Source of the DNA: Candidatus Saccharimonadota bacterium
GTDB lineage: Bacteria > Patescibacteriota > Saccharimonadia > UBA4664
NCBI GenBank assembly: GCA_019352195.1
Contig: JACAFG010000003.1
Location: 64,956-128,955 of the forward strand
DNA: 64,000 nt
Direction of reading: 5' to 3'
The position numbers and the translations under genes were made by a program. The notes below the pieces were generated by a model, which saw only the letters and a program-made list of their open reading frames with translations, did not search any database and had not been told where the DNA came from. Each line of letters opens with the position of its first letter. Position 1 is the stretch's first letter. Below, one piece after another: positions 17,766 through 33,573 of this stretch.

Positions 17766-17801
17766 TCTGGTGAACTCGGGCGACGAACTCGATAAGGATC
17801 G

Positions 17802-18435: not shown

Positions 18436-18458
18436 AAAAACCTCCCGAAAGTAGGAGT

Positions 18459-18482
18459 CCCCGGCGGCGCATGCCGCCGGGG
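18459..18482. terminator. GC-rich hairpin ccccggcggc-gcat-gccgccgggg, 15 nt 3' of the hydrolase gene
   Basis: Perfect 10-bp stem. The T-tract is not adjacent (GGTTTTTAT lies 20 nt downstream on the minus strand), so it may be a terminator or attenuator. Confidence 0.45.
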
Positions 18483-18496
18483 ACTTGACTGGGTAC

Positions 18497-21346
18497 TTAC
18501 TTACCGCCGCCCTGCGCCTTCCACGCGTAGGGGTTGGCGAAGCCGATAAGCCCGCCCCAGGTGCTGACGGTACTTATTTTGACTACGTCGCCGCTCTGGG
18601 GGGCGCTAATCATCTTGTCGCCGCCGAGATAGATTCCGACGTGACCGGGATTACCGGGACCACCGTCTGCGCCCGTAAAGAATACCAGGAAACCTGGCTG
18701 GGCGTGAGCTTCGTCGTAGACGCGGTAGTTCGCCATGTTGACCCACTGGTCGTTGGCGACCTGACCGATGTTGGGCATCCCGATCTGTCCGAAGACATAC
18801 CGAGTGAGGCCTGAACAGTCGAAACCGACGATATTGCAGTCGTTCTGGGCACCGTTAGGTCCACAAATGCCCGTGGACGGTCCGTTGACGCCGCCGCCGC
18901 CCCAAGAATAGTTCGTACCGAGCTCGGTTTTGGCAACAGCGATGACCTTAGCAGGATCACCGCCGGCGGCGGTGATCAGTTGACCCAGCACACCACCTTG
19001 ACCGGGGGAACCAGTGTCAGTGGTGCAGTTGGGGTCGGGTGTGGGACCGGAACCTCCACCGCCAAGCGCTTGGGCAAGATGCACTACTTGGTCGGCGTAG
19101 AGCTGGTAGACGTACTGGAACCTAGACGGGTCAGGGTTGCGAATACCCCCGCCGTAGCCGAAATCTTTTTGGCCATTGTACTGCTCGGCGGCTGCTCGCA
19201 GCGCCGCCATATTGGCGCCAACTCTCGCCCCGTCGTGGCCAATGTAGTTGGCCTCAGCGTAGGCTTCATCCGTGAAGTTGTTGATATCCGGATGACCCGG
19301 GACGGCGTAGGCCGCCCAGGCAGCTGGACCGAACTGAAACGGGCCCGTGAACCCGGGTTGTTGCGGCCACTCCCCCGTTGTCCCATAGGTGGCGAGGTGC
19401 CACTCGGGACTGGTGGTGGTCAGACTACTGAAGGCCGAGGGGTTGTGGTTGCTGTCGTAGTACTTGTACTCGAACGTGAAGCCATTTTGCTCAGTTAGAT
19501 ACATCGTCGCGACCGCTACCGGGGGAACATTTTCGGCTTTGGCAGCAGCAATCATGATCGAGCGCAGCGGCTCCGGTACCATCTTGGCATCAAGACCGCC
19601 AGGAATGGCACCCGTGGGACTGGTGAGACTACCCACCACGCCAGTGGTAGTTGTGCTTGGCGACGTGGTGGGAGCCGGCTTAGGCAGGGCTTGGATCAAG
19701 CCAAACTGCCACTTCTCGGCGAGCACGTGGCTATCGTCAACCTTGGTGGTAAGCGACTGAGCCAGTGCAAAATCAGCGGCAAACTCGTCGGACGAGCTGA
19801 CGTTGAACAGGGCTAGATCGGCCCCGGCGTTGAGCGAATCGGCGATGCGCTGACCCACCGGGCCAGTGCCAGCGCCCACCATTCCTCCGAGTTCATCGGT
19901 GATGGCGAGCCCTGAAAAACCGGTGACGTTACGCAGGTACGCGTAGGCGGCTGGACTCTCACTGGCGGGTTTACCGCTTGTGAGACCTGGAACGCTGAGA
20001 TGCCCCACCATAACCGACAAATTCTTGGTGCCGGCGAGGGTCTTAAAGGGCACTTCGTCAACGGTTGCCATTTGGGACTGGGGCGGGGTTACCGGCAAGC
20101 TGGTGTGCGAGTCGGCAGTGGTTCGCCCGTGTCCGGGAAAGTGCTTTACGACCGCCAGAACCTTCTGGCTAGCGAGCCCCGCAATGAAGGGAGCCGCCGC
20201 CCGGGAAATGACGGTCGGACTGCTGGAAATACCCCGGTCATACTGTCCGATGACCGGATTTGACGCCACCTGGAGGTCGACACTGGGCGCGAAGTCCATG
20301 TTGACGCCGGCGGCGGCCAGTCCGGCGCCCAAACGGGCACCTTCCTGACGAGCCAGATCGGCGCTCATGCTGGCGAGATCACTCGCCCGCTTGCCCGTGG
20401 CTAAGCCGAACGAGTTCACGCTCGACGTGTATTCCTGGTCGGTGGCGATAAGCAGCGGCGTCTGGGCGGCGGCCTGGAAGGACTTGATGCCGCTTTTCAG
20501 GTCGGAACTCACTCGTCCAGGGCTACCACTGCTTGGCAGAAAGAACCCGGCGACGTTGGGCTCGAGAGCCAAAATCGCCAGACCAGTAGCCGTATTGGGA
20601 ACGCCCACAAACAAATGCTGGGCGAACTGATCGGCCGTGGTTTCGGTGGAAGCGGTAACAAACGTAACTGCCAGTCCGTTGGCCCGCATGGTCGCCACCG
20701 ATTTGGCATACGCCTTTTGGATGGCGGCTGCCGTTGGGGACGCCGGAAAATCAGCAATCCCCGTGGCCGCGTTATAAGCCGTCTCTTCGGCCGCTTTGCC
20801 GGGGTTCGTTGCCCACAACGTTGGATCAACGTTGTGGGCCGCGTTCACGTAGCGAGGCAGCTCGTAGTTGGTGGCCTGAGCGGCGTTGAGAGCCTGGGCA
20901 ATGGAAATGCCCGCGTTGGCCCCCGAACCCGGGTCATAGAGCTGATCGACTCCGTACGCTCCGGCACGCACCAGCTTGGGACTACTCCCGCTGGTAAGCT
21001 CGGCGCCTACCAGCATAGCGAGGGTGATGTCGGAATTACCCGACGTATCTTCGATGATGGCCTGGACCAGCGTGTCGGTGGCCGGCGCGGTGCCAAGGGT
21101 ACCTGGCGGAATCGCGTTCGGATTGGGACACGCTAGGCCACCGATAGGATCTCCGGACGCCCATTGGAGCAGCGCCGTGGAGACCTGCATGAGGTCGGCG
21201 GGATTACCGCTGAGAGCTCCGGCCACCACTTCGGCGCCGTTGATGACTTTCTGGGCGATCGTAACTATCCCGACCGTAATGAACAGGATGAAAGCGACCA
21301 CGACGGCCGCAATCTTCATTAACAGACTACGGCGCATGCCGCTCAC
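18497..21346 (-). CDS. Multi-domain secreted peptidoglycan hydrolase: GH3 beta-N-acetylglucosaminidase (NagZ-like) + central lysozyme/transglycosylase-like region + C-terminal NlpC/P60 endopeptidase
   Basis: N-terminal TM/signal. KHFPGHG GH3 motif. C-terminal DCSGL...HVGIY...(NlpC/P60 Cys-His). The real start is probably the ATG at 21337 (SD AGGAGGTGA). Confidence 0.85.
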   Translation of the reverse strand: MSGMRRSLLMKIAAVVVAFILFITVGIVTIAQKVINGAEVVAGALSGNPADLMQVSTALLQWASGDPIGGLACPNPNAIPPGTLGTAPATDTLVQAIIEDTSGNSDITLAMLVGAELTSGSSPKLVRAGAYGVDQLYDPGSGANAGISIAQALNAAQATNYELPRYVNAAHNVDPTLWATNPGKAAEETAYNAATGIADFPASPTAAAIQKAYAKSVATMRANGLAVTFVTASTETTADQFAQHLFVGVPNTATGLAILALEPNVAGFFLPSSGSPGRVSSDLKSGIKSFQAAAQTPLLIATDQEYTSSVNSFGLATGKRASDLASMSADLARQEGARLGAGLAAAGVNMDFAPSVDLQVASNPVIGQYDRGISSSPTVISRAAAPFIAGLASQKVLAVVKHFPGHGRTTADSHTSLPVTPPQSQMATVDEVPFKTLAGTKNLSVMVGHLSVPGLTSGKPASESPAAYAYLRNVTGFSGLAITDELGGMVGAGTGPVGQRIADSLNAGADLALFNVSSSDEFAADFALAQSLTTKVDDSHVLAEKWQFGLIQALPKPAPTTSPSTTTTGVVGSLTSPTGAIPGGLDAKMVPEPLRSIMIAAAKAENVPPVAVATMYLTEQNGFTFEYKYYDSNHNPSAFSSLTTTSPEWHLATYGTTGEWPQQPGFTGPFQFGPAAWAAYAVPGHPDINNFTDEAYAEANYIGHDGARVGANMAALRAAAEQYNGQKDFGYGGGIRNPDPSRFQYVYQLYADQVVHLAQALGGGGSGPTPDPNCTTDTGSPGQGGVLGQLITAAGGDPAKVIAVAKTELGTNYSWGGGGVNGPSTGICGPNGAQNDCNIVGFDCSGLTRYVFGQIGMPNIGQVANDQWVNMANYRVYDEAHAQPGFLVFFTGADGGPGNPGHVGIYLGGDKMISAPQSGDVVKISTVSTWGGLIGFANPYAWKAQGGGK

Positions 21347-21349: not shown

Positions 21350-22225
21350 CTAAGGGTGAAACGAAGTTAGAGTCCACGTACCATCGTGGAACTCCCAGTC
21401 GGACACCGGCCAACTGGCCGATGATGGGGTGTTGGTGGCGTAATTCGGCGTCATGAGCACGCGTCCTTTTGCCGACACTTCCTGAAACGACACCGGCATC
21501 TTGACGTTCATCTGATTACCGATGAGGGTGAACTGTGCCACCTTAAGATCGATGGCAGCGTTGGTCATGGACACACCTGCGGCCTTGAGCTTGTTCAGCT
21601 CGGTGCCCATATCGGTACCGAGCGGGAGTCCCTCCAAAACGCTCGGAGGAACCACCGCAGGACCTAGCTTGGCGATCCGCGCCTGACGCGATGCGACATT
21701 GTCGGAGGGCAAAACTTGGTAGTAGGCGGCCACAAAGTTCTCCAGGTTGACCTTCAGCAAACGAGTATCCGGCGTCCCGGCCGGAAAACCGGCCGGGATT
21801 GACGGAATAACGATCGCTGGCAGAGTCGGCACTGTTGTATAGGCCTCGATAGGCGGCACTGGGGCGTCGCTCGCAAGCTCCGCACCCGAACTGACTGCCG
21901 CCGAACTGGCCGGCACCGAACTCGTTTGGGACGTGGACGATGCCGGCACGGTCGAAGCTTGGCTGTGCGACTTACCGAGCAGCGTAATAACAATCACCAC
22001 GGTGAAAACCGCGAAGAGAGCTGCTACAGCGATTCTGCCATACTGCAGCTCTCGCCAGTCGAAACGGCCAGACTGGCGATTGCGCTTGGGCTGCTCGGTG
22101 CTCATACCGTCACTCCCGTAGCTTCGTACAGACCCGACCGAACATAGCGCGGGTCGGTTTGTTCGGCAAACGGAACGCGGTCGACCATCTGGTCGTTGGA
22201 CGAGTTGGCGCCGATGATATCCCAC
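21350..22225 (-). CDS. Bitopic membrane protein (VirB8-like topology: cytoplasmic N-terminus, one TM, Ser/Thr-rich linker, extracytoplasmic domain)
   Basis: The likely start is the internal ATG at 22105, overlapping the upstream stop as ATGA. The stop lies inside the SD of the hydrolase gene. Confidence 0.6.
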   Translation of the reverse strand: MGYHRRQLVQRPDGRPRSVCRTNRPALCSVGSVRSYGSDGMSTEQPKRNRQSGRFDWRELQYGRIAVAALFAVFTVVIVITLLGKSHSQASTVPASSTSQTSSVPASSAAVSSGAELASDAPVPPIEAYTTVPTLPAIVIPSIPAGFPAGTPDTRLLKVNLENFVAAYYQVLPSDNVASRQARIAKLGPAVVPPSVLEGLPLGTDMGTELNKLKAAGVSMTNAAIDLKVAQFTLIGNQMNVKMPVSFQEVSAKGRVLMTPNYATNTPSSASWPVSDWEFHDGTWTLTSFHP

Positions 22226-23586
22226 TCATCAGGCAACACTTTGTGAGTGAAAAAAATGGGATACGGTAGCGTCGACACCATCATGGCCCATTGACTTGGC
22301 CGAAGCTGATGGACAATGCGCATCTGGGCATCGTTGAAGCCCATCGCGCGGCAATCGGCAATCCCCTCGTCGTCGTTCTCTTCGAGGTGGCCGACGATTC
22401 GGGTGGAAATGGTCTGCCGCAAAATCTCGGCGTTGTTGTGATGATCAGTGCCATAGCCGCCGACACCGGTGATCTGTTGCGTATACTGCGCGATCTCGAT
22501 ATCCCAGGTGGGGAAACGGCGTGTAATAGCCGCTGATCGAGCTCGCATCGACGCGTAATCGGGGCTGGACATGGCCTGGTGGCCTTCGTCGTTGGCATTG
22601 ATATGCGGAATGAGGTGGTCAAGTTGGCGCAGGTGCGCCACCGACAACCACTGCCATTGCAGTGTTTCGAGCAGACCCTGGCCCTTGGCTGGCATACCCA
22701 GCCAATACCAGTTGGCAAAGCGGGCCCCGAGGAAATCGGCCATGCCGCCCATGTGACTGAACGTACGGCCAAAATCTTTGTCGAGGATGCGGTAAAAATC
22801 GGCCGCAAGTAAATGAGCCCGCGAAACAATTTGTCCAACCTCGTCATCGAGCCTGTCATCAGCACGAAACACGCGCTGTTTGATCTCGTAGTACAGGCCG
22901 GGATTGTGCTTGAACCGCTCGTGATAGATCTTGCGCTGCTCCTGGCGACCTTTGAGCTTGTTCGCTTCGACGTCGGCGCGAGAGACGGTGGACAGCGCGT
23001 CGGCAAAATATCTCAGCGACGATACTTTCGGTTTCGCCCACAGCTCATCGACCCCGACACTGATCGCGGCCAAGTCGTATGAGTCATACTCGCGACCCGA
23101 CGAACGTTGGCCCATGATCACAGCCGTCTCGATGTGATCGAAACGGTCGAGACCAATGTCCATAGCGAAGGGGTTAACCAACGGTTCGGTGGCCAGATTG
23201 AACGTTTTGCCACCGCACTTACGGGTTAGAGCGGCGTCTTCCGACTCCCCGTTTTCCGCCTTGCGGCTGTGATCGCGAATGCGCATCATCGCCACTGTAC
23301 CGTCGAGGTTCTTGCCGGCTTGGAGGCCGAGTGCCCGAGCGATAGTGGTCTTCTTCAGCGTCGATTTGCGCGCCTTGATCTGGGCGGTGATGAGCCACGT
23401 ATTGGCAAATGTCATGTCTTGGTCTTGCTGCAGCCACGGATGAACCGCAAACCGCCTGCGATTGTAAAACTCCGTCCCAAGGTATACACCCCGGGTCGAA
23501 AACGGCATGGGAGCCGTGTAGGGCCAGCTGAGAGCAAAACTCTCAAGCGTGCCCGGCAGCGTACGCATTTGGGACATGGAGTTCAC
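22102..23586 (-). CDS. Hypothetical ~490-aa soluble protein with a possible degenerate ParA-like P-loop (IKARKSTLKKTT)
   Basis: The likely start is the ATG at 23577 after SD AGAGGTG. No canonical Walker A. Confidence 0.6.
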   Translation of the reverse strand: MNSMSQMRTLPGTLESFALSWPYTAPMPFSTRGVYLGTEFYNRRRFAVHPWLQQDQDMTFANTWLITAQIKARKSTLKKTTIARALGLQAGKNLDGTVAMMRIRDHSRKAENGESEDAALTRKCGGKTFNLATEPLVNPFAMDIGLDRFDHIETAVIMGQRSSGREYDSYDLAAISVGVDELWAKPKVSSLRYFADALSTVSRADVEANKLKGRQEQRKIYHERFKHNPGLYYEIKQRVFRADDRLDDEVGQIVSRAHLLAADFYRILDKDFGRTFSHMGGMADFLGARFANWYWLGMPAKGQGLLETLQWQWLSVAHLRQLDHLIPHINANDEGHQAMSSPDYASMRARSAAITRRFPTWDIEIAQYTQQITGVGGYGTDHHNNAEILRQTISTRIVGHLEENDDEGIADCRAMGFNDAQMRIVHQLRPSQWAMMVSTLPYPIFFTHKVLPDEWDIIGANSSNDQMVDRVPFAEQTDPRYVRSGLYEATGVTV

Positions 23587-23755
23587 CTCTTTCGAAAATT
23601 GGACAAAAACGGATATATTGGACTTTCAATTTCAAGGTTCGAGACGCTGCTAGGCACCTCGGATATACGTTTTAAGCTAAAACATATATCTGAAGCGCTT
23701 AGCTGTCTCGGGTGGAAAAGCTCCACCCGAGACAGCGGCACGGACATGCAACTGC

Positions 23756-25597
23756 TTACATCATGGGAAGACCCAGATTGGCGCACTGGGCGGCGCGGAA
23801 CTGGCGTGCAGCGCCGGTGACACGCTTGGCCACGTGCTTCTTGGACTTGATGATATTCACGACCGTGCGGATGTCGGCCTCCAGTTGATCGTGCGAGGTC
23901 GCAAGAATCGAGAAGATCCGCGTGTAGTCGGCGCCGTAACCACTCTCGTGCAGCTCGACGCGGCGAGCTTCACCACGCTTGCGCCGATCCTTGGCCGCCA
24001 AGGTGTTGAGCCTCAACCCAGTTCCTTCGGAGAAAGCGTCCTTAAAGCCCGACGCCAGTGTGAGCCACAGAACCTGCAGCTGACTGTTGGTGCTCTCCGA
24101 GAGGGTGGCTTGCGAAAAGTGGATCTTCCGCGCGCCCAGATTGATTTGCCGGTAGTAGTCGGGCAGAACCAACTTGTCCTGCCGTTCGGTGGTATTGGCC
24201 GTGATGACCAAGGTAGCGATGAACGTGCCATCGACGATGCAAAAATCGCGTCCCTGGTAAATGTACTTTCTCGGCCAATGCGGTGACAGCGACTCTGCGA
24301 CAAGATCCTCGAAGTCGCTTGGGGTACCAACAAACTTGGCCCCCAGGCGTTTGCGCGTGTCTTCCTCGGTCTCGTTGACCGAGTCGAGGTGCTCCATACG
24401 CCACGCGTTGTACTCATCGGAATCCGTGATGTGGAGCCCGTTGTAGACGAAATCGCGAGTCTCGGCCAAATCGAGGACATGCGGATCCTCGATCGCGTTC
24501 TGCTCGAGGCCGCCGGTCACCGTATCGATGATCGTCTTGATGTCGGAGGCGCTGAAATCATCCAGCGCCAAACTCCTGCGCTTGGCAGCCCGACTCCATT
24601 CACCCGTACGGCGAATGGACCAAATAGTGACTTGGTCGATATCGAGCTCATTGAGCGCGGAGAACGCCACCGACTGCTGGTATAACCGCCCCGACAAGGC
24701 GAGTCCGTCACACTCCTGATCGGTAAATCCCTCCGCCAAGATCTCATAGGCCTCGTTGGAGAGATTGCCCACCGCGGGATTGATGAGCGCGATGGCCATC
24801 GGATGGTAGTCTTCCTGGAAATCACGTTGGAGCACGAACCGGTCGACCGGTCGAGACCGGTCAAGCGAGGTTACGCGCACCGAGAACTTGTGCTGACCTA
24901 GGGAGACTTCACGGACGACGTCGACGAAGCCGCGATTGCTGTCGGCGGCACTCAGCAGGTCCCAGTTCTTGGTACTGCCGGCGCCGGTCACCACGAAGTA
25001 GTCGGCTTTGGTTACGGGATCGTAAATGCAGGTGTAGACCACGCCACCAGACGCGACGTCATTGGGGTCACCAATGCGGTAAATCTTCAGCCGGATCGGC
25101 CGCCGATTGGGGAAGGGCCGGCGATGACGCTTGGGCTTTACTTCCTCGTTGTTACTGGGCGGTCGGCCCTTCTTTGCGTTAGACCGGGCCTTAGCTTTCG
25201 CCTTGGCTTCAGCCTTAGCTTGGGCTCTCGCTCTCGACTCGGAGTTGCGGTCAGTTTTGGCCGGAATTGGTATAACCCCATCGAAATCGGAAGACATCCA
25301 GAGGACGCCACCGTTCACGACCCCGTGCCACTGACTGACAAACCACTGGCCGAGAACTATGTACACCCGGCCAAAGGTCATCCGCAGAAAAAACATGATC
25401 CAGATTGCAATGCCGATCAACCAGCTATACTGTCCTGGAATGCGCAACTGGATGTAAAAGTCGAGTAGAACGAAGAAGACAAGCGCAATGTGATCACGCC
25501 GGTCGTCGAAACGGAGAAAATTCATCACCGTCCGAGCCGGTATTTTCACATACAATTCGCGAATGTCCCGGCCATCAATTTCTGTTGGACTTGTCAT
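23756..25597 (-). CDS. Large membrane protein (2 N-terminal TM helices, basic KAEAKAKAKA linker, ~450-aa domain)
   Basis: Strong SD AAGGAGG. No recognised catalytic motif. Confidence 0.65.
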   Translation of the reverse strand: MTSPTEIDGRDIRELYVKIPARTVMNFLRFDDRRDHIALVFFVLLDFYIQLRIPGQYSWLIGIAIWIMFFLRMTFGRVYIVLGQWFVSQWHGVVNGGVLWMSSDFDGVIPIPAKTDRNSESRARAQAKAEAKAKAKARSNAKKGRPPSNNEEVKPKRHRRPFPNRRPIRLKIYRIGDPNDVASGGVVYTCIYDPVTKADYFVVTGAGSTKNWDLLSAADSNRGFVDVVREVSLGQHKFSVRVTSLDRSRPVDRFVLQRDFQEDYHPMAIALINPAVGNLSNEAYEILAEGFTDQECDGLALSGRLYQQSVAFSALNELDIDQVTIWSIRRTGEWSRAAKRRSLALDDFSASDIKTIIDTVTGGLEQNAIEDPHVLDLAETRDFVYNGLHITDSDEYNAWRMEHLDSVNETEEDTRKRLGAKFVGTPSDFEDLVAESLSPHWPRKYIYQGRDFCIVDGTFIATLVITANTTERQDKLVLPDYYRQINLGARKIHFSQATLSESTNSQLQVLWLTLASGFKDAFSEGTGLRLNTLAAKDRRKRGEARRVELHESGYGADYTRIFSILATSHDQLEADIRTVVNIIKSKKHVAKRVTGAARQFRAAQCANLGLPMM

Positions 25598-25608
25598 GTC
25601 TCCCCTCC

Positions 25609-26682
25609 TTAGGGCTCGACGGTATCGGCTTCGGCCTTATTACGGTGGTGGTGGTGGACCACCATGAGAGCAGCAGCAGCGGTCCCCGAGAGGGGATTCG
25701 TTGATGATGCCAAGTAGACCGCCCCCTTGAGGGCGCCATAGGCCAATGCGCCGTGGACGACTTTCTTCGGAAGCGAGGTCGGCTTGTACTGGGGTTCAGC
25801 CGGCGGCATCATGTTTTGCGCGTAGTTGTTGTTCACCGTGTCCGCGCTCACTGCTGGCTGGCCGCGCCAATCGAACCTGGTTTGGCCGCTCATGCGCTGC
25901 CGGACCTGCTCAGTCTTGGTCGCCACATAGCTATGCGTCGACTTGAGCATGTAAAACAGGCCGTACCTCGCCACTGCCAGACCGGCGATGAGCGAGACGA
26001 TGGCACCGAACGAAGTGACCGTGGCGGTCTTGCCGCTCACGTACTCCGACAGCACCAGGCACCCCATAACAAAGGGGGCGCCAGCAAACAGCGACACAAA
26101 GCCGATGCTCACGAGCCAGTCGAACGCCGCCTTCATCTTCTGCGACACCACGCTCAGGACAAGCATGGGCAGAAACAGAATCTCGAAGAGGATGATGGCG
26201 ATGCCAAAGATGTAGAACATCACGATGAGGACAATGATGTACCACGACGCCGGCACGAGTCCGACCAGTCCGGCCAAAACACCCGGAATGCTGGGAATGG
26301 TGATGATGCCATTCAGGGGATTCGTCCCGCCCAGATTGAAGAAGTAGTCAGTAATTTTCTGACTGAGGCTTTGCAGCGAGTCACAGAAGCGGAAGAAGAC
26401 TCCCCCACCAATGACGGTCAGAAAAAAGAAGACAACCAACGACTTCACCGCGTACATGAGCCGGCGCTGCATAACAGCACCGATCATGAGCAATACCAAG
26501 GTGATACTCACGGAAAGCATATTGGCAAAGCTCCACGAAGCACCATAGAGCACGTACTGCCAGTCGCCTGGCGGAACACGCGGCGGCTTGATGAGAACCG
26601 CCTTGAGTGCGAGGTTGAGCGTTCGTACAAACGCGCCGACCATGGTCAGAATACCGGAGAGGATAGTACTGATTATGTCCAT
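25609..26682 (-). CDS. Polytopic membrane protein (at least 6 TM; VirB6/TrbL-like topology), His-rich C-terminus
   Basis: SD AGGAGGAGGTGA. Multiple long hydrophobic helices. Confidence 0.65.
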   Translation of the reverse strand: MDIISTILSGILTMVGAFVRTLNLALKAVLIKPPRVPPGDWQYVLYGASWSFANMLSVSITLVLLMIGAVMQRRLMYAVKSLVVFFFLTVIGGGVFFRFCDSLQSLSQKITDYFFNLGGTNPLNGIITIPSIPGVLAGLVGLVPASWYIIVLIVMFYIFGIAIILFEILFLPMLVLSVVSQKMKAAFDWLVSIGFVSLFAGAPFVMGCLVLSEYVSGKTATVTSFGAIVSLIAGLAVARYGLFYMLKSTHSYVATKTEQVRQRMSGQTRFDWRGQPAVSADTVNNNYAQNMMPPAEPQYKPTSLPKKVVHGALAYGALKGAVYLASSTNPLSGTAAAALMVVHHHHRNKAEADTVEP

Positions 26683-26758
26683 CGTTCACCTCCTCCTAGA
26701 GGACGAATGGCCTGGAGCGCGATCCGCACTCCAGGCCATATTCGACGGGACCGGAGTG

Positions 26759-27217
26759 CTAGTAGCAGCCGGGGACCTCTTTGTTGACGGCCGCCGTGAA
26801 GATCTTCAGGACGATCGCCAGAATCACGAGACCGATGGTCGCGAAACGAAGAGCGATCAACAGCGGTCGCAGCGTGACCAGGGCCAACAGTGCGCCACAG
26901 ACGAGTGCCATCAGGGCCACTGAGTAGAAGAGGATCGTCACAACGCCGTACGTCTCGCTGACCACTCCGATGAGTGGCAGCTTCATGATGTTGGCGGCGT
27001 CGCAGCTGCCGCTGTTGATGTAGGACCCCTGGTTGGGACCTCCGCCGCCCGTGGGTGCGGCCGGGACGGCCATGGCCATGGACGCGGAGGTCAACAGCAT
27101 GGTGAACATGCCGCCCAGAACGACGACGCCGCGGGCTGCGGCGGCGCGGAGCCGCACGTACGTTTCGATCATGGCACTACCTTCTTTCTGGTGGGGGTGG
27201 GTAAGACTGCAGCTCAC
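26759..27217 (-). CDS. Pilin-like small protein (signal peptide + two hydrophobic helices; VirB2/TrbC-like architecture)
   Basis: The likely start is MIETYV at 27172 (SD AGAAGGTAG). A signal ends ...SASMAMA. Cys residues sit near the mature N-terminus (SGSCD) and at the C-terminus (PGCY). Confidence 0.55.
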   Translation of the reverse strand: MSCSLTHPHQKEGSAMIETYVRLRAAAARGVVVLGGMFTMLLTSASMAMAVPAAPTGGGGPNQGSYINSGSCDAANIMKLPLIGVVSETYGVVTILFYSVALMALVCGALLALVTLRPLLIALRFATIGLVILAIVLKIFTAAVNKEVPGCY

Positions 27218-28859
27218 CGTAGAGGTTCACAGCTTGGAGCTGAGGGTGGTACCGCGTACCTGTTTCGGCCACCTGATCGATGTGAGAGATGTCGACTCCA
27301 CGCGTATCAGCGGAAATGCGCAGAGCCTGTTCGGCAACCTTCATGTAGGCCAAGAAGGTCTGCATGTCGATCGCGTTGGGGTCACACACGGTTCCCCGCT
27401 TGCTGGCGATGTACGGATCGTACGGGACGGTCATGCACTTGCCGGCGAACTTGTCGGTTGGTACCGCGTGGGCCGATTGGCGCGCAGTTCGGGTAAGTTG
27501 ATCAAAATCGATCTCCTCGCCCACACGAATGGCGTTCACGACCACGATTGATTTCTTGACCTTCTTAGGGGTCTGAACGAATCCTGGCTGGCCAGCAATC
27601 TCTGCCGGAGGCTCGGTGTCCGTTCGATACGCGTCCATCGTGCTCGTGAGCATGAGGCGCGTGATCTCGACGTCGGCCTTGCAGTTGAAGATGATCACCG
27701 TGGCTTTCCGGGCACCGGCCAGAACAATGCTGTCCTCGTTGACGTCGTCGTTGCCCGTATCGAGCCCCATCGTATGGCAGTTGGGGTAGAGGGCATCGAA
27801 CATCCGGTTGAATGTCTGCACCGTCAGCTCGCTGTGGTCGTTGATGACGCTGTTAGGGTTCCCCGAAATGACGCCGAGCCCGATCCGCGGAGTTGTGTTG
27901 ATGAAACTCCACAGCTTTTTGTTTGTCGGATTCGGATCGTCCTCGAGCAACTTCACCAACTTGCCGATGGTGAAGAGCACTTCGGAGTAGATATCGAAGC
28001 CGGCATCGTGTCCGGCCGTGCTCGTGGCGGAGTTCTTGGTGGTCGGAAGCAGGAGCGTGTCCTTGCCGCCAAACAACCTGATGATCGCCAGCACGTACAA
28101 CAACAGGGTGGTCTTGGCGGCCGTGCCCTTGATGTTGGCACTGAGAATGACCGGGTCGATCCCTGGAGTCTGGACGAGCGCGTAGATTCTGGCGCCCGTC
28201 ATGAAGACGTCGTTGTAGAAATCGGCGACTTTCTGGCGAGCTTCCCTCTGACGCGACTCTTCTGCTTGCTCGAGCAGCCGGCGCTGATGCTCCTCGGCGC
28301 TGCGGGCATGCCGAAGCGCCATGAGTTTGTCGATCTGTTCTTTGCTGAGCTTCAGGCTCTTGGGAAACTCTCTCGTTGCGCGGTCGGGGTGCAGCAAGAC
28401 GAACCTGCGTAGGGCGAACCAGTTGCCGAGCCCGCCGTCCTCCGCGATTCGGCGCTCGTCCGGATCCAGGGGATCTGGCTTGATGACCGGGGGTGGAGGC
28501 GAGGTGGGCACGGCCATGCCGTCCTTGATGGTGGGGATGGGCCCAGTCAGGGCATCACTCACCGTTCGGAGGTCGAGGGCCGGGTGCGGCTCAGAAGACT
28601 TGTCCAGAGACACGACCCTCTGGCCGACGGACGCCGCCTCTCCGGTAATGGCGGACACTGCCCGGAGTGTGGGCGATGCCGGTCGCACCACGGGTGCCGG
28701 GCCTCGACCCGTTAGCGCAATACTGGTATCTGGACGTGCGGCAGAGTCAGGACGGCGGCGAGGTAGCCGGTCGTCACGGGCTGGTTCGGACATGGCAAAA
28801 TCCCTTCGGAACGGTAAAAACCTTGGAAAATGGACGGAAGTTAAAATGCTGTAGAACAT
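27177..28859 (-). CDS. Protein with C-terminal ParA/MinD/CpaE-like domain bearing a degenerate deviant Walker A (KGTAAKTT) and an N-terminal Pro-rich/coiled region
   Basis: IKGTAAKTTLLLYVLAIIRLFGGKDTLLLPTTKNSATS parallels ParA [38 protein letters not shown]. The likely start is MSEPARDD at 28793 (SD GAAGGG). Confidence 0.6.
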   Translation of the reverse strand: MFYSILTSVHFPRFLPFRRDFAMSEPARDDRLPRRRPDSAARPDTSIALTGRGPAPVVRPASPTLRAVSAITGEAASVGQRVVSLDKSSEPHPALDLRTVSDALTGPIPTIKDGMAVPTSPPPPVIKPDPLDPDERRIAEDGGLGNWFALRRFVLLHPDRATREFPKSLKLSKEQIDKLMALRHARSAEEHQRRLLEQAEESRQREARQKVADFYNDVFMTGARIYALVQTPGIDPVILSANIKGTAAKTTLLLYVLAIIRLFGGKDTLLLPTTKNSATSTAGHDAGFDIYSEVLFTIGKLVKLLEDDPNPTNKKLWSFINTTPRIGLGVISGNPNSVINDHSELTVQTFNRMFDALYPNCHTMGLDTGNDDVNEDSIVLAGARKATVIIFNCKADVEITRLMLTSTMDAYRTDTEPPAEIAGQPGFVQTPKKVKKSIVVVNAIRVGEEIDFDQLTRTARQSAHAVPTDKFAGKCMTVPYDPYIASKRGTVCDPNAIDMQTFLAYMKVAEQALRISADTRGVDISHIDQVAETGTRYHPQLQAVNLYGELQSYPPPPERR

Positions 28860-28922
28860 GTTGTAAGCAGTTTTTCAAGGAGCTGGTCATTTAACCCATC
28901 TGGTGCTCAACTTCCGGATGGA

Positions 28923-28943
28923 GGTTGACCAATGGGGTTGACC
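28923..28943. promoter_or_regulatory. Tandem GGTTGACC direct repeats (13-bp period) in the divergent promoter region
   Basis: GGTTGACC at 28923-28930 and 28936-28943, within the 350-bp AT-richer gap between the operon and the divergent 29208 gene. Confidence 0.3.
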
Positions 28944-29207
28944 CGGATATTGCTACCCGGTTCCGGAAGCTGATTTTAGGCTTATATTGAGCTTAAAATC
29001 GTACTTGCAGAATCGATCAACAATAATCATTACGCTTGGCTCAAAATCCTAGCGAGACCGTACCACTTTTTATATTTGATGACAAGCACAACCGTCTAGC
29101 ATCTATTAATAGTTGCCATTTGAACATTAATATCGTATAAACCACCCATAGATGACCCAGTGAAATTGGTTCACCCACCTTCATAATCCAAGTCCTAGGG
29201 AGACCTC

Positions 29208-30596
29208 ATGACCGGTCCTACGCCGCCGGCACCATCGACACCACCCGAACCACCGAAACCACCGCGCCACCGACCGCAGTCGACTTTTCAAAGAATGTTG
29301 GAGCCCGAAACCGCCGAGCTGACCTTCGAAGATTACGTCGAAGGGAGCGAACGCAGAGGCCTGAACGCACTGTTGTGCAGCGGCGCCGTCGTGATGCTCG
29401 GCTTTCTTGTCTTCGTGCTCACCCAGCTCGCGTGGCTAAAAGCCACCATCCTGTCGGTTTGGTGGGTGAATGTGCTCATTTGGGCCGTTCTCAGCCTGAT
29501 TGCCGTGTGGATCATTCTGCGGGCGCGTGCTGAGATGGAGTGGATCAACCAAGATGTTGATGCTTTTGGCCGCTACGACGAGGCACAGCCCCCCGCCGAG
29601 CGGCTGCAGGTGAAGTACGAGTGGGTTCCACGCAAGTACACCATCCGCATCTTACTGGCCAAAGTCGCCGATCAAAAAGACCGCTTCGAGGCGATCACCA
29701 AACTGCCCGTAGACAACCTCATACTCGCTACCCGGCGCAAGAAGATTGTGATGTACGCACCCATCGGGGGCATGATTGTGTTTGGGGGCCTCGTCTTGTG
29801 GACTACCAGTTGGGCGTCGGTGTATCTCCAAAACGCGGTTTACAACGTTATGGTGACGCCTCCCGGCGACAATACGTCCGCCAACAGCTTCATCGATAGT
29901 TTGGTAGCCAAGGCCCAAAGCGCGGCCGTCAGTTTCAGCTTCGACTGGCACTGGCTCGTTGGGATGGCAATATTGCTAACCGCCGGTGTCTTCTTGTTGC
30001 GTTTGGCCGTGAGGCACGTTCGGCGTCGGGGCGATGCCAGACGAGCAGCTCGGAGCGAGAACGCGGTGAGGGAACCACATCTGGGCTACTGGACAATCAG
30101 CCTCCTCATTGCTTTGGCAGCGAGCGCAATTGTCGTGAATTTGTGGCACGCCATCGACGTGACTCAGGTTTACCGCAATACCTTCGAAGGCCAATCGGCG
30201 CCCCTCCACCATGTCTTTTCCGGCTTGCCCAGCTGGTTTGGTATCGGTGTCTGGGTATTGGTGGCGCTTTACGGTGTGGGCGCGGTGCTAAGGTGGATGA
30301 GCTTCGTCGTAGCGCTCATGACCACGAGCATTCAGCTGGTGCCCTTGTGGCCTGGCTGGTTGTTCTGGGTGGGGCGTAACCCGGCCATTTTGTACGTCGA
30401 CCGGATCGACCTCAACAACTACAAACAGTCGGTTTGGGGGCGCATCTTCAGATATTGCACTCTCATCATCGACTCACCGGCCCAAAAAGACCGGCAGTTC
30501 AACCACATTTTGGGCATGCCCAAACCCGACGTCATATTGGCCACTATCAACTCCATCGTGAAGGCCAGGCTCCTGATTCAACCGCCCTCAATCTGA
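29208..30596 (+). CDS. Polytopic membrane protein (462 aa) with a Pro-rich N-terminus
   Basis: SD AGGGAG. Many hydrophobic helices. Divergent from the envelope operon. Confidence 0.6.
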   Translation: MTGPTPPAPSTPPEPPKPPRHRPQSTFQRMLEPETAELTFEDYVEGSERRGLNALLCSGAVVMLGFLVFVLTQLAWLKATILSVWWVNVLIWAVLSLIAVWIILRARAEMEWINQDVDAFGRYDEAQPPAERLQVKYEWVPRKYTIRILLAKVADQKDRFEAITKLPVDNLILATRRKKIVMYAPIGGMIVFGGLVLWTTSWASVYLQNAVYNVMVTPPGDNTSANSFIDSLVAKAQSAAVSFSFDWHWLVGMAILLTAGVFLLRLAVRHVRRRGDARRAARSENAVREPHLGYWTISLLIALAASAIVVNLWHAIDVTQVYRNTFEGQSAPLHHVFSGLPSWFGIGVWVLVALYGVGAVLRWMSFVVALMTTSIQLVPLWPGWLFWVGRNPAILYVDRIDLNNYKQSVWGRIFRYCTLIIDSPAQKDRQFNHILGMPKPDVILATINSIVKARLLIQPPSI

Positions 30597-31820: not shown

Positions 31821-32051
31821 GGTTCGCCATCATCAGCTACCCCCTGGACAGCGGAACCAAGCCCATCAGTTTTTCCGTGCTCTACCACCCGAGCGGTATC
31901 GTTGACCTGCTCGCGGTGATCGCCCCGAAGCTCCGGAGCATTCCCGGGCTGGTCCAGATCGCTACCTAGCGCCATACTCAGCTTCCGTCCTCCATCTTGC
32001 CCCGAAAGGAGCGCCAATTTTCGGCGAGCCCTTCGGGGCTTCGTCTTGTTA

Positions 32052-32086
32052 AAACACAAAAACAGCGCTATTGGCGCTGTTTTTGA
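32052..32086. terminator. Bidirectional rho-independent terminator
   Basis: AAAAACAGCGC-tattg-GCGCTGTTTTT. Perfect 8-bp stem with flanking A-tract and T-tract. Confidence 0.65.
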
Positions 32087-32157
32087 AGACTTAATTGCTG
32101 GTGCCCTTAAACGACATCCCTTCGAACAGCTAGTTGATTGGATCGATGTGATCGGAC

Positions 32158-32541
32158 TTAGCTTTGAATCGAATGGGAGTTTAGCCAGTTCGAAATTTCT
32201 TTAACATCGATATGTTTGGTAGCGATTTCGACTGCATAATTTTCAATCTCACCTGCTGTTGCCCGAAATTCAAGCTCGTTAAGTCGAAGTAAGGTTAAAC
32301 CTGCAAGTATGGCCGTACGCTTATTACCATCGACAAATGGATGATCGGCGATAATCCCCCGAATAATGGCAGCAGATTTATCAGTAATATTAGCGTATAG
32401 CTCCTCACCGAAGACGTTTTGGGTTTGCGTAGCAACCGCCGACTCCAGCCTACCAAGGTCGCGCAAACCCGAAGCGCCGCCAGTTTCGGCTAGCACAAGT
32501 GCGTGGATCTCAAGCAAATGCTCGAGCGAAAGCACAATCAT
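32158..32541 (-). CDS. doc: Doc (Fic-family) toxin
   Basis: Fic motif HPFVDGNKRTA. 127 aa. Confidence 0.9.
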   Translation of the reverse strand: MIVLSLEHLLEIHALVLAETGGASGLRDLGRLESAVATQTQNVFGEELYANITDKSAAIIRGIIADHPFVDGNKRTAILAGLTLLRLNELEFRATAGEIENYAVEIATKHIDVKEISNWLNSHSIQS

Positions 32542-32759
32542 CGCTGAGAGAGATTATCAAAATCCTGCTTGTAGTCGTTCAAGATGCCACGAGCAGTAGC
32601 AATGACTTTCTGGTCATCACTGTTAGGAGAGTGGACAGGGCGGACGATTACTTCAACTTCGTCACCAATCGCAATATTCTGACGCTTTAGGTCTTTGGCA
32701 GGAATAGTGACGCCCCCGCTTGAACCGATTTTGATAATTTTTTGGATGCTTTGAATCAT
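32538..32759 (-). CDS. phd: Phd/AbrB-type antitoxin (SpoVT/AbrB swapped-hairpin N-terminus)
   Basis: 73 aa. MIQSIQKIIKIGSSGGVTIPAKDLKRQNI is an AbrB/MazE-like fold signature. Overlaps doc by 4 nt. Confidence 0.8.
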   Translation of the reverse strand: MIQSIQKIIKIGSSGGVTIPAKDLKRQNIAIGDEVEVIVRPVHSPNSDDQKVIATARGILNDYKQDFDNLSQR

Positions 32760-32764
32760 AGAAA

Positions 32765-32794
32765 TATTATAACGTTGTTATAATACTATGTCTA
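32765..32794 (-). promoter_or_regulatory. phd-doc promoter/operator: inverted repeat TATTATAAC-GTT-GTTATAATA overlapping -10 TATAAT; -35 TAGACA
   Basis: Inverted repeat at 32765-32785. The -10 sits 7 nt from the ATG, which implies a leaderless or very short-leader mRNA. Confidence 0.45.
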
Positions 32795-32968
32795 GACCTA
32801 TTTAGTGTGATCTGGATGAGACACATTCAATCAAAGACTATATAAGCCCTCCGTGGAGGTCTTATATTAGAATAATTGTTATTCAATTGTCTTAAATGAT
32901 GCTCTTGAACGACACCTGTTCAAACCCTTAGTTGCGTGGCTCGACCGAATAAGGATCTACTGGGTGAA

Positions 32969-33307
32969 TTAGCCGCTTACTAAACTTTCAATTAGTCCTT
33001 GCGTTTTAGATATGACATTATCGCTGGCCCTCTCCTCATACGCTGGTTTTCGAGCTCGCCAATCAACATTTTTGATCTGATCGGCAAGAACAGCTCCCTC
33101 CATTTTTTTGGACTTGACGCGGACTTCGAATGGATAGCCTTTGATCTTAGACGTTATCGGGCAGGCCAACATCATACCTGAGCGTTCGTTGTAATTTCGC
33201 GACGAAATCACCAGTGCAGGACGCGTGCCAGCCTGTTCGTGGCCAATCTGGGGGCTAAAATCAAACCACACAATGTCCCCGCGGGCGGGGACGTAGTCCG
33301 CTACCAT
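32969..33307 (-). CDS. mazF: MazF/PemK-family endoribonuclease toxin
   Basis: 112 aa. Start MVADYVPARGDIVWFDF...PALVIS matches the PemK/MazF N-terminal signature. Confidence 0.85.
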   Translation of the reverse strand: MVADYVPARGDIVWFDFSPQIGHEQAGTRPALVISSRNYNERSGMMLACPITSKIKGYPFEVRVKSKKMEGAVLADQIKNVDWRARKPAYEERASDNVISKTQGLIESLVSG

Positions 33308-33549
33308 ATTTCATTCCCGACAGGAGCGCCCCAGTCCATTTCGCCGTGAATGTTTTCAGGGGTGATGCCCTTCACTAAGTCGTCCAATGATAACCTGGGC
33401 TGCTCGTCGCGTTTGATGGTAGCCGTCGTGCCGTCGCTGGTAATTTCGACCTGACAATCACTGGATAGGCCGAGATCCCGCGCTACACGTGAGGGAATAC
33501 GGATAGCCAGACTATTGCCCCACATTTTGACTTGGGTGGTAGTTTTCAT
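33301..33549 (-). CDS. mazE: MazE/PemI-type antitoxin
   Basis: 82 aa. WGNSLAIRIPSRVARDLGL is a SpoVT/AbrB MazE hallmark. Overlaps mazF by 7 nt. Confidence 0.8.
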   Translation of the reverse strand: MKTTTQVKMWGNSLAIRIPSRVARDLGLSSDCQVEITSDGTTATIKRDEQPRLSLDDLVKGITPENIHGEMDWGAPVGNEIW

Positions 33550-33573
33550 TGTTCGGCCCCATTAATGCTTAAA

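Follow-up and report, generated by a model that had tools for sequence, protein, structure and literature searches.

What kind of machine is encoded by the eight-gene cassette found in a 64-kb stretch of the chromosome of an uncultured member of Saccharibacteria (64,000 nucleotides, hereafter the window)? The first-pass annotation took it for an undescribed envelope-spanning machine that matches no T4SS and has no VirB4-type ATPase. Our analysis leads to another answer. With a probability of about 0.7, the cassette encodes a chromosomal, fast-evolving T4SS of the monoderm actinobacterial lineage, which is kept by a minority of Saccharibacteria/Patescibacteria and is probably non-conjugative, with a cell-surface role.

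The cassette consists of seven co-directional ORFs on the minus strand and one divergent gene, g0 (Table 1). The ORFs lie at the positions given beforehand, and with revised starts (g1, g2, g5, g6, and g7) the product lengths match the public gene calls for the contig. All seven have a strong coding signature (GC3 of 0.69-0.86 versus GC2 of 0.41-0.52), showing that the run of seven consecutive genes is real. The gaps at the successive junctions from g1 to g7 are 4, 76, 11, 178, -4, and 12 nt. The stop codon of g5 and the start codon of g6 share an ATGA overlap at 22102-22105, and the stop codon of g6 directly abuts the Shine-Dalgarno sequence of g7 (GGAGGTG). These two junctions agree with the coupled operon proposed earlier, while the 76-nt gap between g2 and g3 and the structured 178-nt spacer between g4 and g5 depart from it. 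Hydropathy reproduces the topologies described beforehand: a signal-like segment and two helices in g2, polytopic proteins in g3 and g0, two N-terminal helices in g4, and one N-terminal helix each in g6 and g7. It is also correct that standard libraries do not name most of these proteins. Nothing significant is found for g1 to g6 in Pfam, NCBIfam, or PHROGs, and g0 has a weak bPH_2-type match only.

Table 1. Features of the cassette, in window positions.
Feature	Position	Strand	Description
g0	29208..30596	+	462 aa, divergent polytopic membrane protein
g1	27177..28793	-	538 aa, ParA/Soj/MinD-family
g2	26759..27172	-	137 aa, small pilin-like protein
g3	25609..26682	-	357 aa, polytopic, candidate VirB6-like translocon subunit
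g4	23756..25597	-	613 aa, two-helix hairpin and VirB4 N-terminal-domain fold
RNA spacer g4/g5	23578..23755	-	structured, 178 nt
g5	22102..23577	-	491 aa, VirB4 C-terminal (RecA-like) ATPase domain
g6	21350..22105	-	251 aa, bitopic, candidate VirB8/TcpC-like
g7	18497..21337	-	946 aa, membrane-anchored multi-domain peptidoglycan hydrolase

The system is identified by g5 and g4. The AF2 model of g5 (pLDDT 91.8) has its best Foldseek matches to the VirB4 structures 4ag5 and 4ag6 (E about 1e-11), followed by DndH-C, Cagbeta, HerA, TrwK, and TrwB. The g5 family profile matches 4ag5 (E 8e-5), and hhalign aligns g5 with actinobacterial TraC at a probability of 99.7% (E 1.8e-25). The family includes 109 representative clusters, and NCBIfam VirB4_plasma is matched by 19 of 70 members. 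g5 is a VirB4 C-terminal ATPase-domain protein and a homologue of the actinobacterial "conjugal transfer protein TraC". It had been counted as one of two proteins with degenerate ParA/MinD P-loops. The 4ag5/4ag6 and TraC matches rule this out for g5, while the other protein, g1, is indeed ParA/Soj-like. For g4, whose predicted model is of moderate confidence (pLDDT 63.5), all 14 significant Foldseek matches are TrwK chains, and hhalign connects it to the SCO6880 family (E 3.1e-6). g4 is the VirB4 N-terminal domain, a SCO6880-family homologue, and the first half of a split VirB4. Its N-terminal two-helix membrane hairpin stands in a VirB3-like position.

Since g5 is the ATPase domain and g4 the N-terminal domain of VirB4, the system is a T4SS of monoderm actinobacterial type. 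A machine unrelated to T4SS is ruled out by these assignments (Foldseek, profile, hhalign, and NCBIfam for g5; the TrwK Foldseek matches for g4). What survives of the earlier proposal is a machine that spans the envelope and is built from secretion-system parts. It is not a new class of machine but a very divergent T4SS related to actinobacterial conjugation machinery, without DNA-transfer parts nearby.

The statement that the cassette has no Walker A/B ATPase applies to only one of the two motifs of g5. Walker B is intact (D330, E331), and Walker B, R353, and Q364 are invariant across the g5 family. Walker A is non-canonical in the window (AQIKARKST), while GK[ST] is present in 64 of the 70 family members. 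In the subclade of the window genome, Arg replaces the Walker A glycine, implying that ATP turnover is probably weakened or altered there. Without a canonical Walker A in g5, the motor may be inactive in the window genome.

Earlier guesses for the other parts (pilin-like, VirB6-like, VirB8-like, ParA-like, and VirB1-like hydrolase) hold to varying degrees. The g1 family profile aligns with H. pylori Soj (6iub) along almost the entire chain (E 8e-6), and then with other ParA, MinD, FleN, and MipZ chains. In g1, a long N-terminal extension is probably disordered, and Walker A is deviant and degenerate (KGTAAKTT in the window versus the family consensus KGGAxKTT, with KGGASK[ST] in several members). 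Its homologues are first in the cassette in eight loci. TadZ/CpaE and VirC1 are ParA-like proteins associated with pilus or secretion machines, and g1 resembles them in its ParA/MinD fold, atypical Walker A, and first operon position. ParA-like proteins of this kind localise or recruit the apparatus. Unlike Tad systems, the cassette has no TadA/PilB-type ATPase, prepilin peptidase, or Flp pilin.

g2 is a candidate VirB2/TrbC-type pilin, judged from its sequence. Its N-terminus is signal-peptide-like (..SASMAMA/VPA) and is followed by two hydrophobic helices, and G76 and the C-terminal Cys, C136, are invariant in the family alignment. In actinobacterial T4SS clusters, the matching slot before the polytopic gene is taken by a gene of 101-118 aa. 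In a pooled scan of g0, g2, g3, g6, and g7 homologues, two members, unnamed in the output and presumably g2 homologues, weakly match TrbC/VirB2 (PF04956; best E 0.0057). g3 and g6 are candidates for VirB6-like and VirB8/TcpC-like (NTF2-like, wall-spanning) subunits, respectively, by topology, gene position, and weak scores. g3 has at least six hydrophobic segments, and every locus has a copy, 17-32% identical to that of the window. It gives no direct match to VirB6 or TrbL. A weak co-linear hhalign match (E 0.001, probability 21%; controls 0.15-0.77) links it to the 343-355 aa polytopic protein encoded just upstream of SCO6880 in actinobacterial plasmids. In g6, a Ser/Thr/Pro-rich linker joins the transmembrane segment (25-43) to a C-terminal domain of about 130 aa that is conserved. 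L157, W237, and W244 are invariant in its family alignment, and in the PDB its profile weakly matches TcpC only (3ub1, E 0.099).

g7 is a peptidoglycan hydrolase, and multiple domains are present as described earlier. Pfam detects Glyco_hydro_3 (E 1.1e-40) and NLPC_P60 (E 3.2e-16), and NCBIfam assigns a DIP1281/RipA/RipB-type NlpC/P60 domain. The layout is an N-terminal lysozyme/SLT-like module, a NagZ-like GH3 domain, a second SLT-like stretch, and the C-terminal NlpC/P60 domain. In the pooled scan SLT is matched by one member, presumably a g7 homologue (E 6.6e-4). The N-terminal region of about 230 aa is the only part common to the cassette homologues tested, that of L008 excepted. Their C-terminal catalytic domains differ (M23, NlpC/P60, an M15-like motif recognised by eye, and Exo_endo_phos). 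By analogy, g7 may be the functional counterpart of VirB1.

The nearest known systems are actinobacterial conjugative T4SS cores such as those on the Citricoccus plasmid NZ_CP133844.1 and the Pseudarthrobacter plasmid NZ_CP047899.1. There, too, VirB4 comes as two proteins: one of about 530-550 aa, which is membrane-anchored and has the N-terminal domain, and an ATPase of about 510 aa. The Micrococcaceae plasmid clusters have the same order as the cassette (small-TM, polytopic protein of ~350 aa, SCO6880, TraC), and the actinobacterial plasmid clusters also encode a lytic transglycosylase or peptidase. While the VirB4 halves abut or overlap in the plasmids, they are separated by the structured RNA in the cassette, which is chromosomal. 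For g1, g0, g6, and the multi-domain hydrolase g7, the plasmid clusters have no recognised counterpart.

Patescibacteria are known to have T4SSs that are essential and lack a relaxase (PMC10633639, PMC12102498). The Southlakia epibionticum cluster SEML1_0006-0019 is, like the cassette, chromosomal and from the same phylum, with a monoderm-type (MPF_FATA-related) VirB4, VirB2-like pilins, no relaxase or coupling protein, and peptidoglycan hydrolases, there directly downstream of virB4 (PMC10633639, PMC12102498). Its VirB4, however, is undivided (612 aa), and the cluster further encodes a PrgI-family protein (PF12666), two large proteins (VirB6-like, ~1,090 aa; another T4SS protein, ~1,000 aa), and an array of six PF18895 pilins. 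None of these signatures is found in the cassette, which has a ParA-like gene beyond the Southlakia set. The cassette is therefore different from the Patescibacteria T4SS of the literature. Gram-positive MPF_FATA conjugation systems (pCF10 Prg, pIP501 Tra, pCW3 Tcp, and Thermoanaerobacter VirB4, 4ag5) share its minimal monoderm plan, with a VirB1-like multi-domain hydrolase, VirB3/4, and VirB6-like and VirB8-like (NTF2) proteins. They provide the best structural match of g5 (4ag5/4ag6) and the weak TcpC match of g6. In contrast to the cassette, their VirB4 is full-length, a coupling protein, a relaxase, and surface adhesins are present, and a pilin is usually absent.

As the first-pass annotation had suggested checking, gene order is conserved: nine further distinct loci (those named are from Saccharibacteria/Patescibacteria) have all eight genes in identical order, and their proteins are 17-36% identical to the window copy. 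Two of these loci, L010 and L014, have the same chromosomal neighbours. While UvrC and SecG are 58% and 62% identical between them, the cassette proteins are only 21-26% identical, implying a resident, rapidly diverging locus.

Does this locus transfer DNA? It is unlikely, but conceivable, that it is a working T4SS for conjugation or DNA transfer whose coupling protein, relaxase, and oriT lie in another part of the genome. In the plasmid clusters that hold the closest relatives of g4 and g5, a VirD4-type coupling protein directly follows TraC. In Patescibacteria most VirD4 homologues (t4cp) are far from virB4 (PMC12102498), and integrases and a rolling-circle Rep protein are encoded 9-17 kb from the cassette in the window. 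However, no coupling protein is matched in the window or any related locus, where the TraC positive control works, and no relaxase or T4SS DNA-transfer Pfam family is matched, either in the scanned ORFs of the window or in genes next to the cassette in eight related loci. The cassette lies amid housekeeping genes, in a position common to L010 and L014. The low-GC island of the window (0.44-0.49) is unlike the cassette (0.57-0.61) and is missing from the other loci. Since the cassette is accompanied by a coupling protein in none of the loci, and by a relaxase in none of those covered by Pfam, it is probably not a conjugation apparatus.

The spacer between g4 and g5 bears on whether the cassette is maintained. 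It has a minimum free energy of -68.5 kcal/mol (z-score -7.0 versus shuffles) and two hairpins: a GC-rich one of 15 bp at about 23702-23736 and a second at 23649-23702. On their 3' side are a CTTAACAAT-like motif (CCTTGAAATTG in the window) and then the g5 Shine-Dalgarno sequence. Equivalent hairpins are found in the 180-280 nt g4/g5 spacer of all eight loci examined, with compensatory changes in 14 of the 22 pairs of hairpin 2. The covariance model R1 recovers the held-out L018 (E 1.4e-7) and L017 (E 0.007), inside the g4/g5 spacer only. It has no match in the rest of the 266 kb searched, and its score is always higher on the sense strand. No Rfam family matches the spacer. Judging from sequence, the RNA probably sets the relative expression of g4 and g5, and it could be a terminator/attenuator or a processing element, with an internal promoter after it.

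A decaying, non-functional remnant of an integrated actinobacterial-type conjugative element would explain the degenerate Walker A motifs of g5 and g1 and the rarity of the cassette in databases (clusters of 1-4 members). The cassette lies between tRNA genes and the mobile island with GC3 above that of housekeeping genes, which leaves room for a mobile origin. Decay is nevertheless highly improbable. All eight genes are intact and still have Shine-Dalgarno sequences and coupled junctions, and the compensatory changes in the spacer and the invariant Walker B, R353, and Q364 of g5 also speak against it. Order and content kept in ten loci at such low identity require long purifying selection.

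Another possible outcome is domestication. Streptomyces coelicolor cmdABCDEF (SCO4126-4131), with its paralogous cluster SCO6871-6884, is a chromosomal set of co-transcribed membrane proteins with a VirB4-like ATPase, CmdB (PMC2782261). CmdB, CmdC, and CmdD correspond to SCO6878, SCO6880, and SCO6881. It is reported that cmd is a non-conjugative derivative, dispensable for plasmid transfer, which makes it a precedent for a domesticated T4SS (PMC2782261). The cassette is likewise chromosomal and, as judged via the SCO6880 family, shares the SCO6880/TraC lineage with cmdB and cmdC. It might similarly serve the cell itself, in envelope biology or division (segregating chromosomes, septation, or remodelling the wall), and not in host interaction. 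The ParA-like first gene, hydrolases resembling RipA/RipB and DipM-type division enzymes, and the lack of DNA-transfer genes nearby are in line with this. Cmd itself acts in sporulation and chromosome segregation of a filamentous actinomycete, and it has no reported ParA-like gene, pilin-like gene, or RNA spacer (PMC2782261). We consider a domesticated role of this kind quite unlikely for the cassette. It has a pilin-like secreted subunit and is found in a minority of lineages only. It also evolves much faster than the housekeeping genes next to it, as systems for the surface or for host interaction do more typically than the core machinery of division.

More likely, this T4SS works at the cell surface where it meets the host bacterium, in adhesion/pilus formation or protein transfer. 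In such a machine g4, with its membrane anchor, and g5 would form the cytoplasmic motor, which would dock on a membrane platform of g3 and g6. Cleaved g2 could be extracted from the membrane into a short pilus or conduit, with g7 opening the wall locally and g1 placing or licensing assembly at a defined site. g0 would be a conserved membrane accessory. It has about six hydrophobic segments, and its C-terminus gives sub-threshold signals for bPH_2 (Pfam, E 0.0025); the PHROG "membrane-flanked domain" is also matched below threshold (E 0.018). L005, L007, L008, L017 (E 5e-22), and L018 (E 2e-12) each have a g0 homologue, placed divergently as in the window.

The eight genes of the cassette, seven on the minus strand (g1-g7) and a divergent partner on the plus strand (g0), are listed in the table with other features of the window and of related loci from other genomes (L002 to L018). 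All eight open reading frames reported in the first-pass annotation exist, and the coding signature is clear in each of them (GC3 0.69-0.86 versus GC2 0.41-0.52), but four of the starts had to be moved to ATGs preceded by a Shine-Dalgarno sequence. After this shift the product lengths match public gene calls. The translational coupling proposed for the operon is also found only in part. g5 and g6 do overlap in an ATGA, the stop codon of g6 lies right against the ribosome-binding site of g7, and the gaps are as short as 4 nt between g1 and g2 and 11 nt between g3 and g4. However, 76 nt separate g2 from g3 and 178 nt separate g4 from g5, and the operon is therefore not coupled along its full length.

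Coordinates of the cassette, its homologues and neighbouring features
Feature	Locus	Coordinates	Strand	Product or remark
g0	window	29208-30596	+ (divergent)	462 aa
g1	window	27177-28793	-	538 aa
g2	window	26759-27172	-	137 aa
g3	window	25609-26682	-	357 aa
g4	window	23756-25597	-	613 aa
g5	window	22102-23577	-	491 aa
g6	window	21350-22105	-	251 aa
g7	window	18497-21337	-	946 aa
g7 homologue	L004	2868-4190		
g7 homologue	L005	12244-13959		
g7 homologue	L007	12138-13751		
g7 homologue	L008	12043-14343		
g7 homologue	L010	12048-13571		
g7 homologue	L013	7352-8509		
g4-g5 spacer	window	23578-23755	-	structured RNA
g4-g5 spacer	L002	4274-4533		
g4-g5 spacer	L004	457-733		
g4-g5 spacer	L005	9721-10000		
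g4-g5 spacer	L007	9764-10000		
g4-g5 spacer	L008	9769-10000		
g4-g5 spacer	L010	9810-10000		
g4-g5 spacer	L013	5160-5339		
g4-g5 spacer	L017	~8858-8913		
g4-g5 spacer	L018	8862-8916		
RsmD-RecG-TyrS-PBP block	window	46798-55428		
RsmD-RecG-TyrS-PBP block	L004	5317-12227		
MazE/PemK and MazE/Fic toxin-antitoxin pairs; DUF5677 protein	window			low-GC island
Phage_CRI-like rolling-circle Rep	window	38598-39791		low-GC island
Tyrosine integrase	window	40156-41058		low-GC island
NgoMIV restriction enzyme and C5 methylase	window	42644-44555		low-GC island
Serine recombinase	window	45107-46696		3' end overlaps tRNA-Leu (46645-46728) on opposite strand

The cassette is a type IV secretion system (T4SS), because its hallmark ATPase, VirB4, is identified in g5. 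At the consensus level, the g5 family shows the canonical Walker A motif GxxxxGK[ST] together with a DE Walker B, and one Arg and one Gln do not vary. The best PDB sequence match of the family profile is the VirB4 ATPase domain of Thermoanaerobacter (4ag5, E 8e-5), and NCBIfam VirB4_plasma is matched by 19 of 70 family members, Pfam AAA_10 by three, and TIGR00929 by two. The AlphaFold model of the window g5 (pLDDT 91.8) gives 4ag5/4ag6 as the top Foldseek matches (E about 1e-11), followed by DndH-C, Cagbeta, HerA, TrwK, and TrwB. g5 is thus a VirB4-family ATPase with the RecA-like C-terminal domain expected in a T4SS. The first-pass annotation was right in recognizing the gene set as a real finding, but its interpretation, that the set matches no T4SS, has to be corrected, since g5 matches both 4ag5/4ag6 and TraC, the ATPase of actinobacterial plasmids.

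Walker A of the window g5 itself is not canonical and reads AQIKARKST (residues 65-73). Its two nearest relatives, each recovered from a different sample, have GQIGxRKS. Arg in place of the P-loop Gly before Lys is found only in these three proteins, while GK[ST] is present in 64/70 family members. The window g5 keeps the Walker B DE (D330 and E331, invariant in the family), R353, and Q364. ATP turnover may be altered or weakened in this subclade, and the Gly-to-Arg change provides a concrete handle on whether VirB4 ATPase activity is dispensable.

The other half of VirB4 is encoded by g4, which has two transmembrane helices at its N-terminus. In Foldseek with a model built on eight syntenic homologues (pLDDT 63.5, pTM 0.62), all 14 significant matches are TrwK chains and none is a RecA-like ATPase. 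g4 therefore corresponds to the N-terminal domain of VirB4, joined to a membrane hairpin that is VirB3-like, as expected for the membrane-tethered half of a T4SS VirB4. The two helices had also suggested a VirD4-like coupling protein, a reading that does not agree with a fold matching the VirB4 N-terminal domain alone.

The same split is found in plasmids of Actinobacteria. Among plasmids, g5 has only four weak tblastn matches, all in Micrococcaceae and two of them on genes annotated as "conjugal transfer protein TraC". The gene order in these plasmids is a small transmembrane protein (101-118 aa), a polytopic protein (343-355 aa), an "SCO6880 family protein" (529-549 aa), TraC (507-510 aa), and a VirD4-type coupling protein. 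When profiles are compared by hhalign, the g5 family matches TraC with a probability of 99.5-99.7% (E 1.8e-25 at 99.7%) and the g4 family matches SCO6880 proteins with a probability of 88% (E 3.1e-6, 356 columns); mismatched control pairs give E 0.1-0.8. NCBIfam SCO6880_fam is matched by two of eight g4 homologues, up to E 0.009, which is below the curated cutoff, and the window g4 has no NCBIfam match. The match between g3 and the plasmid polytopic protein (E 0.001, probability 21%) is at most suggestive. As in the plasmids, the next gene after the SCO6880-family member of the cassette encodes a TraC-like ATPase (about 500 aa). The profile matches and the shared gene order thus make g2-g3-g4-g5 a collinear homologue of the core of the actinobacterial split-VirB4 T4SS. 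The known hosts of Saccharibacteria are Actinobacteria, and this kinship suggests that genes have moved from one phylum to the other. Streptomyces has been reported to carry a derivative of the lineage that is chromosomal and non-conjugative, cmdABCDEF, which resembles SCO6878/6880/6881 and affects sporulation but not plasmid transfer (PMC2782261). The cassette would be a further example of such a domesticated, non-conjugative T4SS.

The junction of the two VirB4 halves has no spacer in the actinobacterial plasmids, unlike in the cassette, where a spacer of about 180-280 nt exists in every locus examined. First comes an extended GC-rich hairpin, with no sequence relationship from one locus to the next, followed by a second hairpin in which the outer arms are conserved, and then a CTTAACAAT-like motif. 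The window spacer folds with -68.5 kcal/mol (z-score -7), and compensatory changes are found in 14 of the 22 pairs of the second hairpin. A covariance model built from seven loci recovers the two held-out loci, L018 (E 1.4e-7) and L017 (E 0.007), inside the g4-g5 spacer only, and has no other match across 266 kb; in every case the score of the sense strand is 9-26 bits above that of the other strand. A DNA-level inverted repeat of an oriT was considered as well, but many G-U pairs and the consistently higher score of the sense strand favour an RNA structure. A small VirB3-like ORF in the spacer is also rejected; the open frames are not conserved between loci and look like by-products of the inverted repeats. 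The spacer has no Rfam match, and a simple scan for promoters and terminators was uninformative. The RNA would likely serve as a terminator/attenuator or processing element, with an internal promoter, setting the ratio of the two gene blocks. As a conserved structured RNA placed between VirB4 halves, it is a new candidate for a regulatory motif.

The remaining genes encode the other components. The pilin-like g2 has a signal-peptide-like start and two hydrophobic helices. When homologues of g0, g2, g3, g6, and g7 are scanned as a pool, Pfam TrbC/VirB2 is matched by two members (E 0.0057), presumably g2 homologues. In the g2 family (alignment A11) an invariant Cys is the last or next-to-last residue, and in most members another Cys follows right behind the signal peptide; these cysteines could serve for a disulfide or another C-terminal modification. 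g3 is polytopic and keeps its syntenic position, with no match to TrbL or VirB6 profiles. In the bitopic g6 a Ser/Thr/Pro linker precedes a C-terminal domain that is conserved, and the only tie of g6 to VirB8-like (NTF2-fold) proteins is a weak match to TcpC (3ub1, E 0.099). We tentatively infer a VirB6 role for g3 and a VirB8 role for g6. The g1 profile matches Soj/ParA along the whole chain (best 6iub, E 8e-6), followed by MinD, FleN, and MipZ. Its deviant Walker A is degenerate, KGTAAKTT in the window and KGGASK[ST] (several), DGGAGKST, or KGAAATT in relatives. g0 is polytopic, has a weak bPH_2 signal, and is kept in the divergent position among related loci.

The wall hydrolase g7, a VirB1 analogue within the cluster, carries GH3 and NlpC/P60 domains. 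A recognized wall-hydrolase domain is found in the last cassette gene in 8/9 related loci; the L002 contig holds only the shared N-terminal module. This lysozyme/SLT-like module is common to every cassette hydrolase tested except that of L008, and the catalytic domains at the C-terminus are exchanged from one locus or lineage to the next: GH3 with NlpC/P60, NlpC/P60 with M23, M23 alone, or Exo_endo_phos with M23. An M15-like motif was also read by eye from the sequence.

The eight genes exist in the same order in L002/L003, L004, L005, L006/L007, L008/L009, L010-L012, L013-L015, L017 ("Patescibacteria group bacterium UBA6017"), and L018 ("uncultured Candidatus Saccharibacteria bacterium"), two of the contigs being partial. 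Their neighbours are housekeeping genes, which vary by lineage. The window setting is likewise chromosomal. Downstream, beyond g7, are rpoB, rpoC, clpP, a HAD hydrolase, trigger factor, and two tRNA genes. On the opposite side are a methyltransferase, a low-GC island (32-46.7 kb), and an RsmD-RecG-TyrS-PBP1 block. Note that about 970 nt from tRNA-Arg to the hydrolase stop (17529-18496) have no called gene or Rfam match, and that a strong intrinsic-terminator-like hairpin (15 bp and a T-run) is found on the minus strand between tRNA-Arg and g7 (17735-17768).

The RsmD-RecG-TyrS-PBP block is common to the window and L004, directly downstream of the cassette in L004 and upstream of it, past the mobile island, in the window. 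RecG is 52% identical between the two and g5 29.5%, while TyrS, RsmD, and a 271-aa protein are only 28-39% identical. L010 and L014 share SBP-SecG-holin-UvrC upstream of the cassette; UvrC is 58% and SecG 62% identical, compared to 21-26% for the cassette proteins. With cassette proteins at 21-30% and RecG, UvrC, and SecG at 52-62%, divergence of the cassette is unusually fast. The common neighbours and this contrast therefore indicate a long-term chromosomal resident diverging much faster than its surroundings.

Because of this fast divergence, profile libraries miss the cassette. In direct scans of the window proteins, g1-g6 have no significant match in Pfam, NCBIfam, PHROGs, or PDB sequences, and g0 has only weak, sub-threshold bPH_2-type matches. 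A word-indexed search of 5.8 billion proteins retrieves g4 and g5 each by themselves alone, and nothing beyond the query with a 70-sequence g5 profile. The g5 family was found only by an exhaustive HMMER search, which yields 109 representative clusters; nearly all members are 450-550 aa long, and most matches are full-length with 20-37% identity. Sampled clusters hold one to three sequences each, all unnamed or "hypothetical". The family is real, yet rare and very divergent. A profile search with family alignment A3 found nothing in GTDB representative genomes; the narrower alignment A12 found two loci. Surveys with standard profiles could undercount such T4SSs, to judge from the profiles compared here, those of Pfam, NCBIfam, and PHROGs.

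A conjugative T4SS would have a VirD4/TcpA-type coupling protein and a relaxase with the cluster, and this combination is found neither in the window nor in related loci. Two actinobacterial coupling proteins have no tblastn match in the 64-kb window or any related locus, and no Pfam match to a relaxase or T4SS-DNA_transf was found among the window ORFs scanned or the called flanking genes of related loci. No integrase, relaxase, or coupling protein lies closer than about 10 kb to any of the related cassettes. Nor was there a TadA/PilB-, EccC/FtsK-, or FliI-type ATPase with its cognate membrane components, as in Tad or type IV pili, ESX/T7SS, and flagellar export, respectively.

In the one Saccharibacterium tested genetically, Southlakia epibionticum, a T4SS (SEML1_0006-0019) is essential for epibiotic life (PMC10633639, PMC12102498). 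It has a single 612-aa VirB4, a PrgI-family protein (PF12666), six PF18895 pilins, two large hydrolases, and two further T4SS proteins, one of them VirB6-like (about 1,090 aa) and the other about 1,000 aa long (PMC10633639 Tables S1/S2; PMC12102498). The window cassette shares with it the monoderm type, the lack of a relaxase, a pilin-like subunit, and a hydrolase after virB4, but its VirB4 is split, it has one pilin-like gene, its polytopic protein measures 357 aa, and there are no PF12666 or PF18895 matches. Although the overall logic is shared, the Southlakia signatures, judged from published feature tables, are absent, and the cassette is therefore regarded as a distinct T4SS lineage in the phylum. 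Its profile matches and gene order place it in the split-VirB4 lineage of Actinobacteria, which some Saccharibacteria have domesticated in their chromosome. Added to it are the gene for a ParA-like protein, the membrane partner encoded divergently, a multi-domain hydrolase that varies between loci, and an RNA element of its own. Some Saccharibacteria thus carry a different T4SS lineage, annotated as hypothetical proteins only. Its predicted role is most likely that of a non-conjugative, host-facing envelope machine.

A fuller scenario, to which we give about one chance in four, is that a Saccharibacteria clade carries a second, unrecognized T4SS lineage, which it either obtained from Actinobacteria or has in common with them and which was domesticated as a non-conjugative surface organelle. 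The VirB4 motor would be permanently split, its halves coupled via a dedicated cis-regulatory RNA, and would be a pseudo-ATPase in one subclade; the ParA-like protein would position the machine, and, driven by a host arms race, the cassette would evolve at about twice the rate of the chromosomal genes around it.

The low-GC mobile island (32000-46730, GC 0.44-0.49) could be taken to form one integrative element with the cassette, but the two differ in composition, att-like direct repeats were not found, and the island is absent from other loci. Within it, a 36-nt direct repeat (33841-33876 and 34501-34536, 86% identical and 660 nt apart) flanks a 181-aa ORF (33921-34466).
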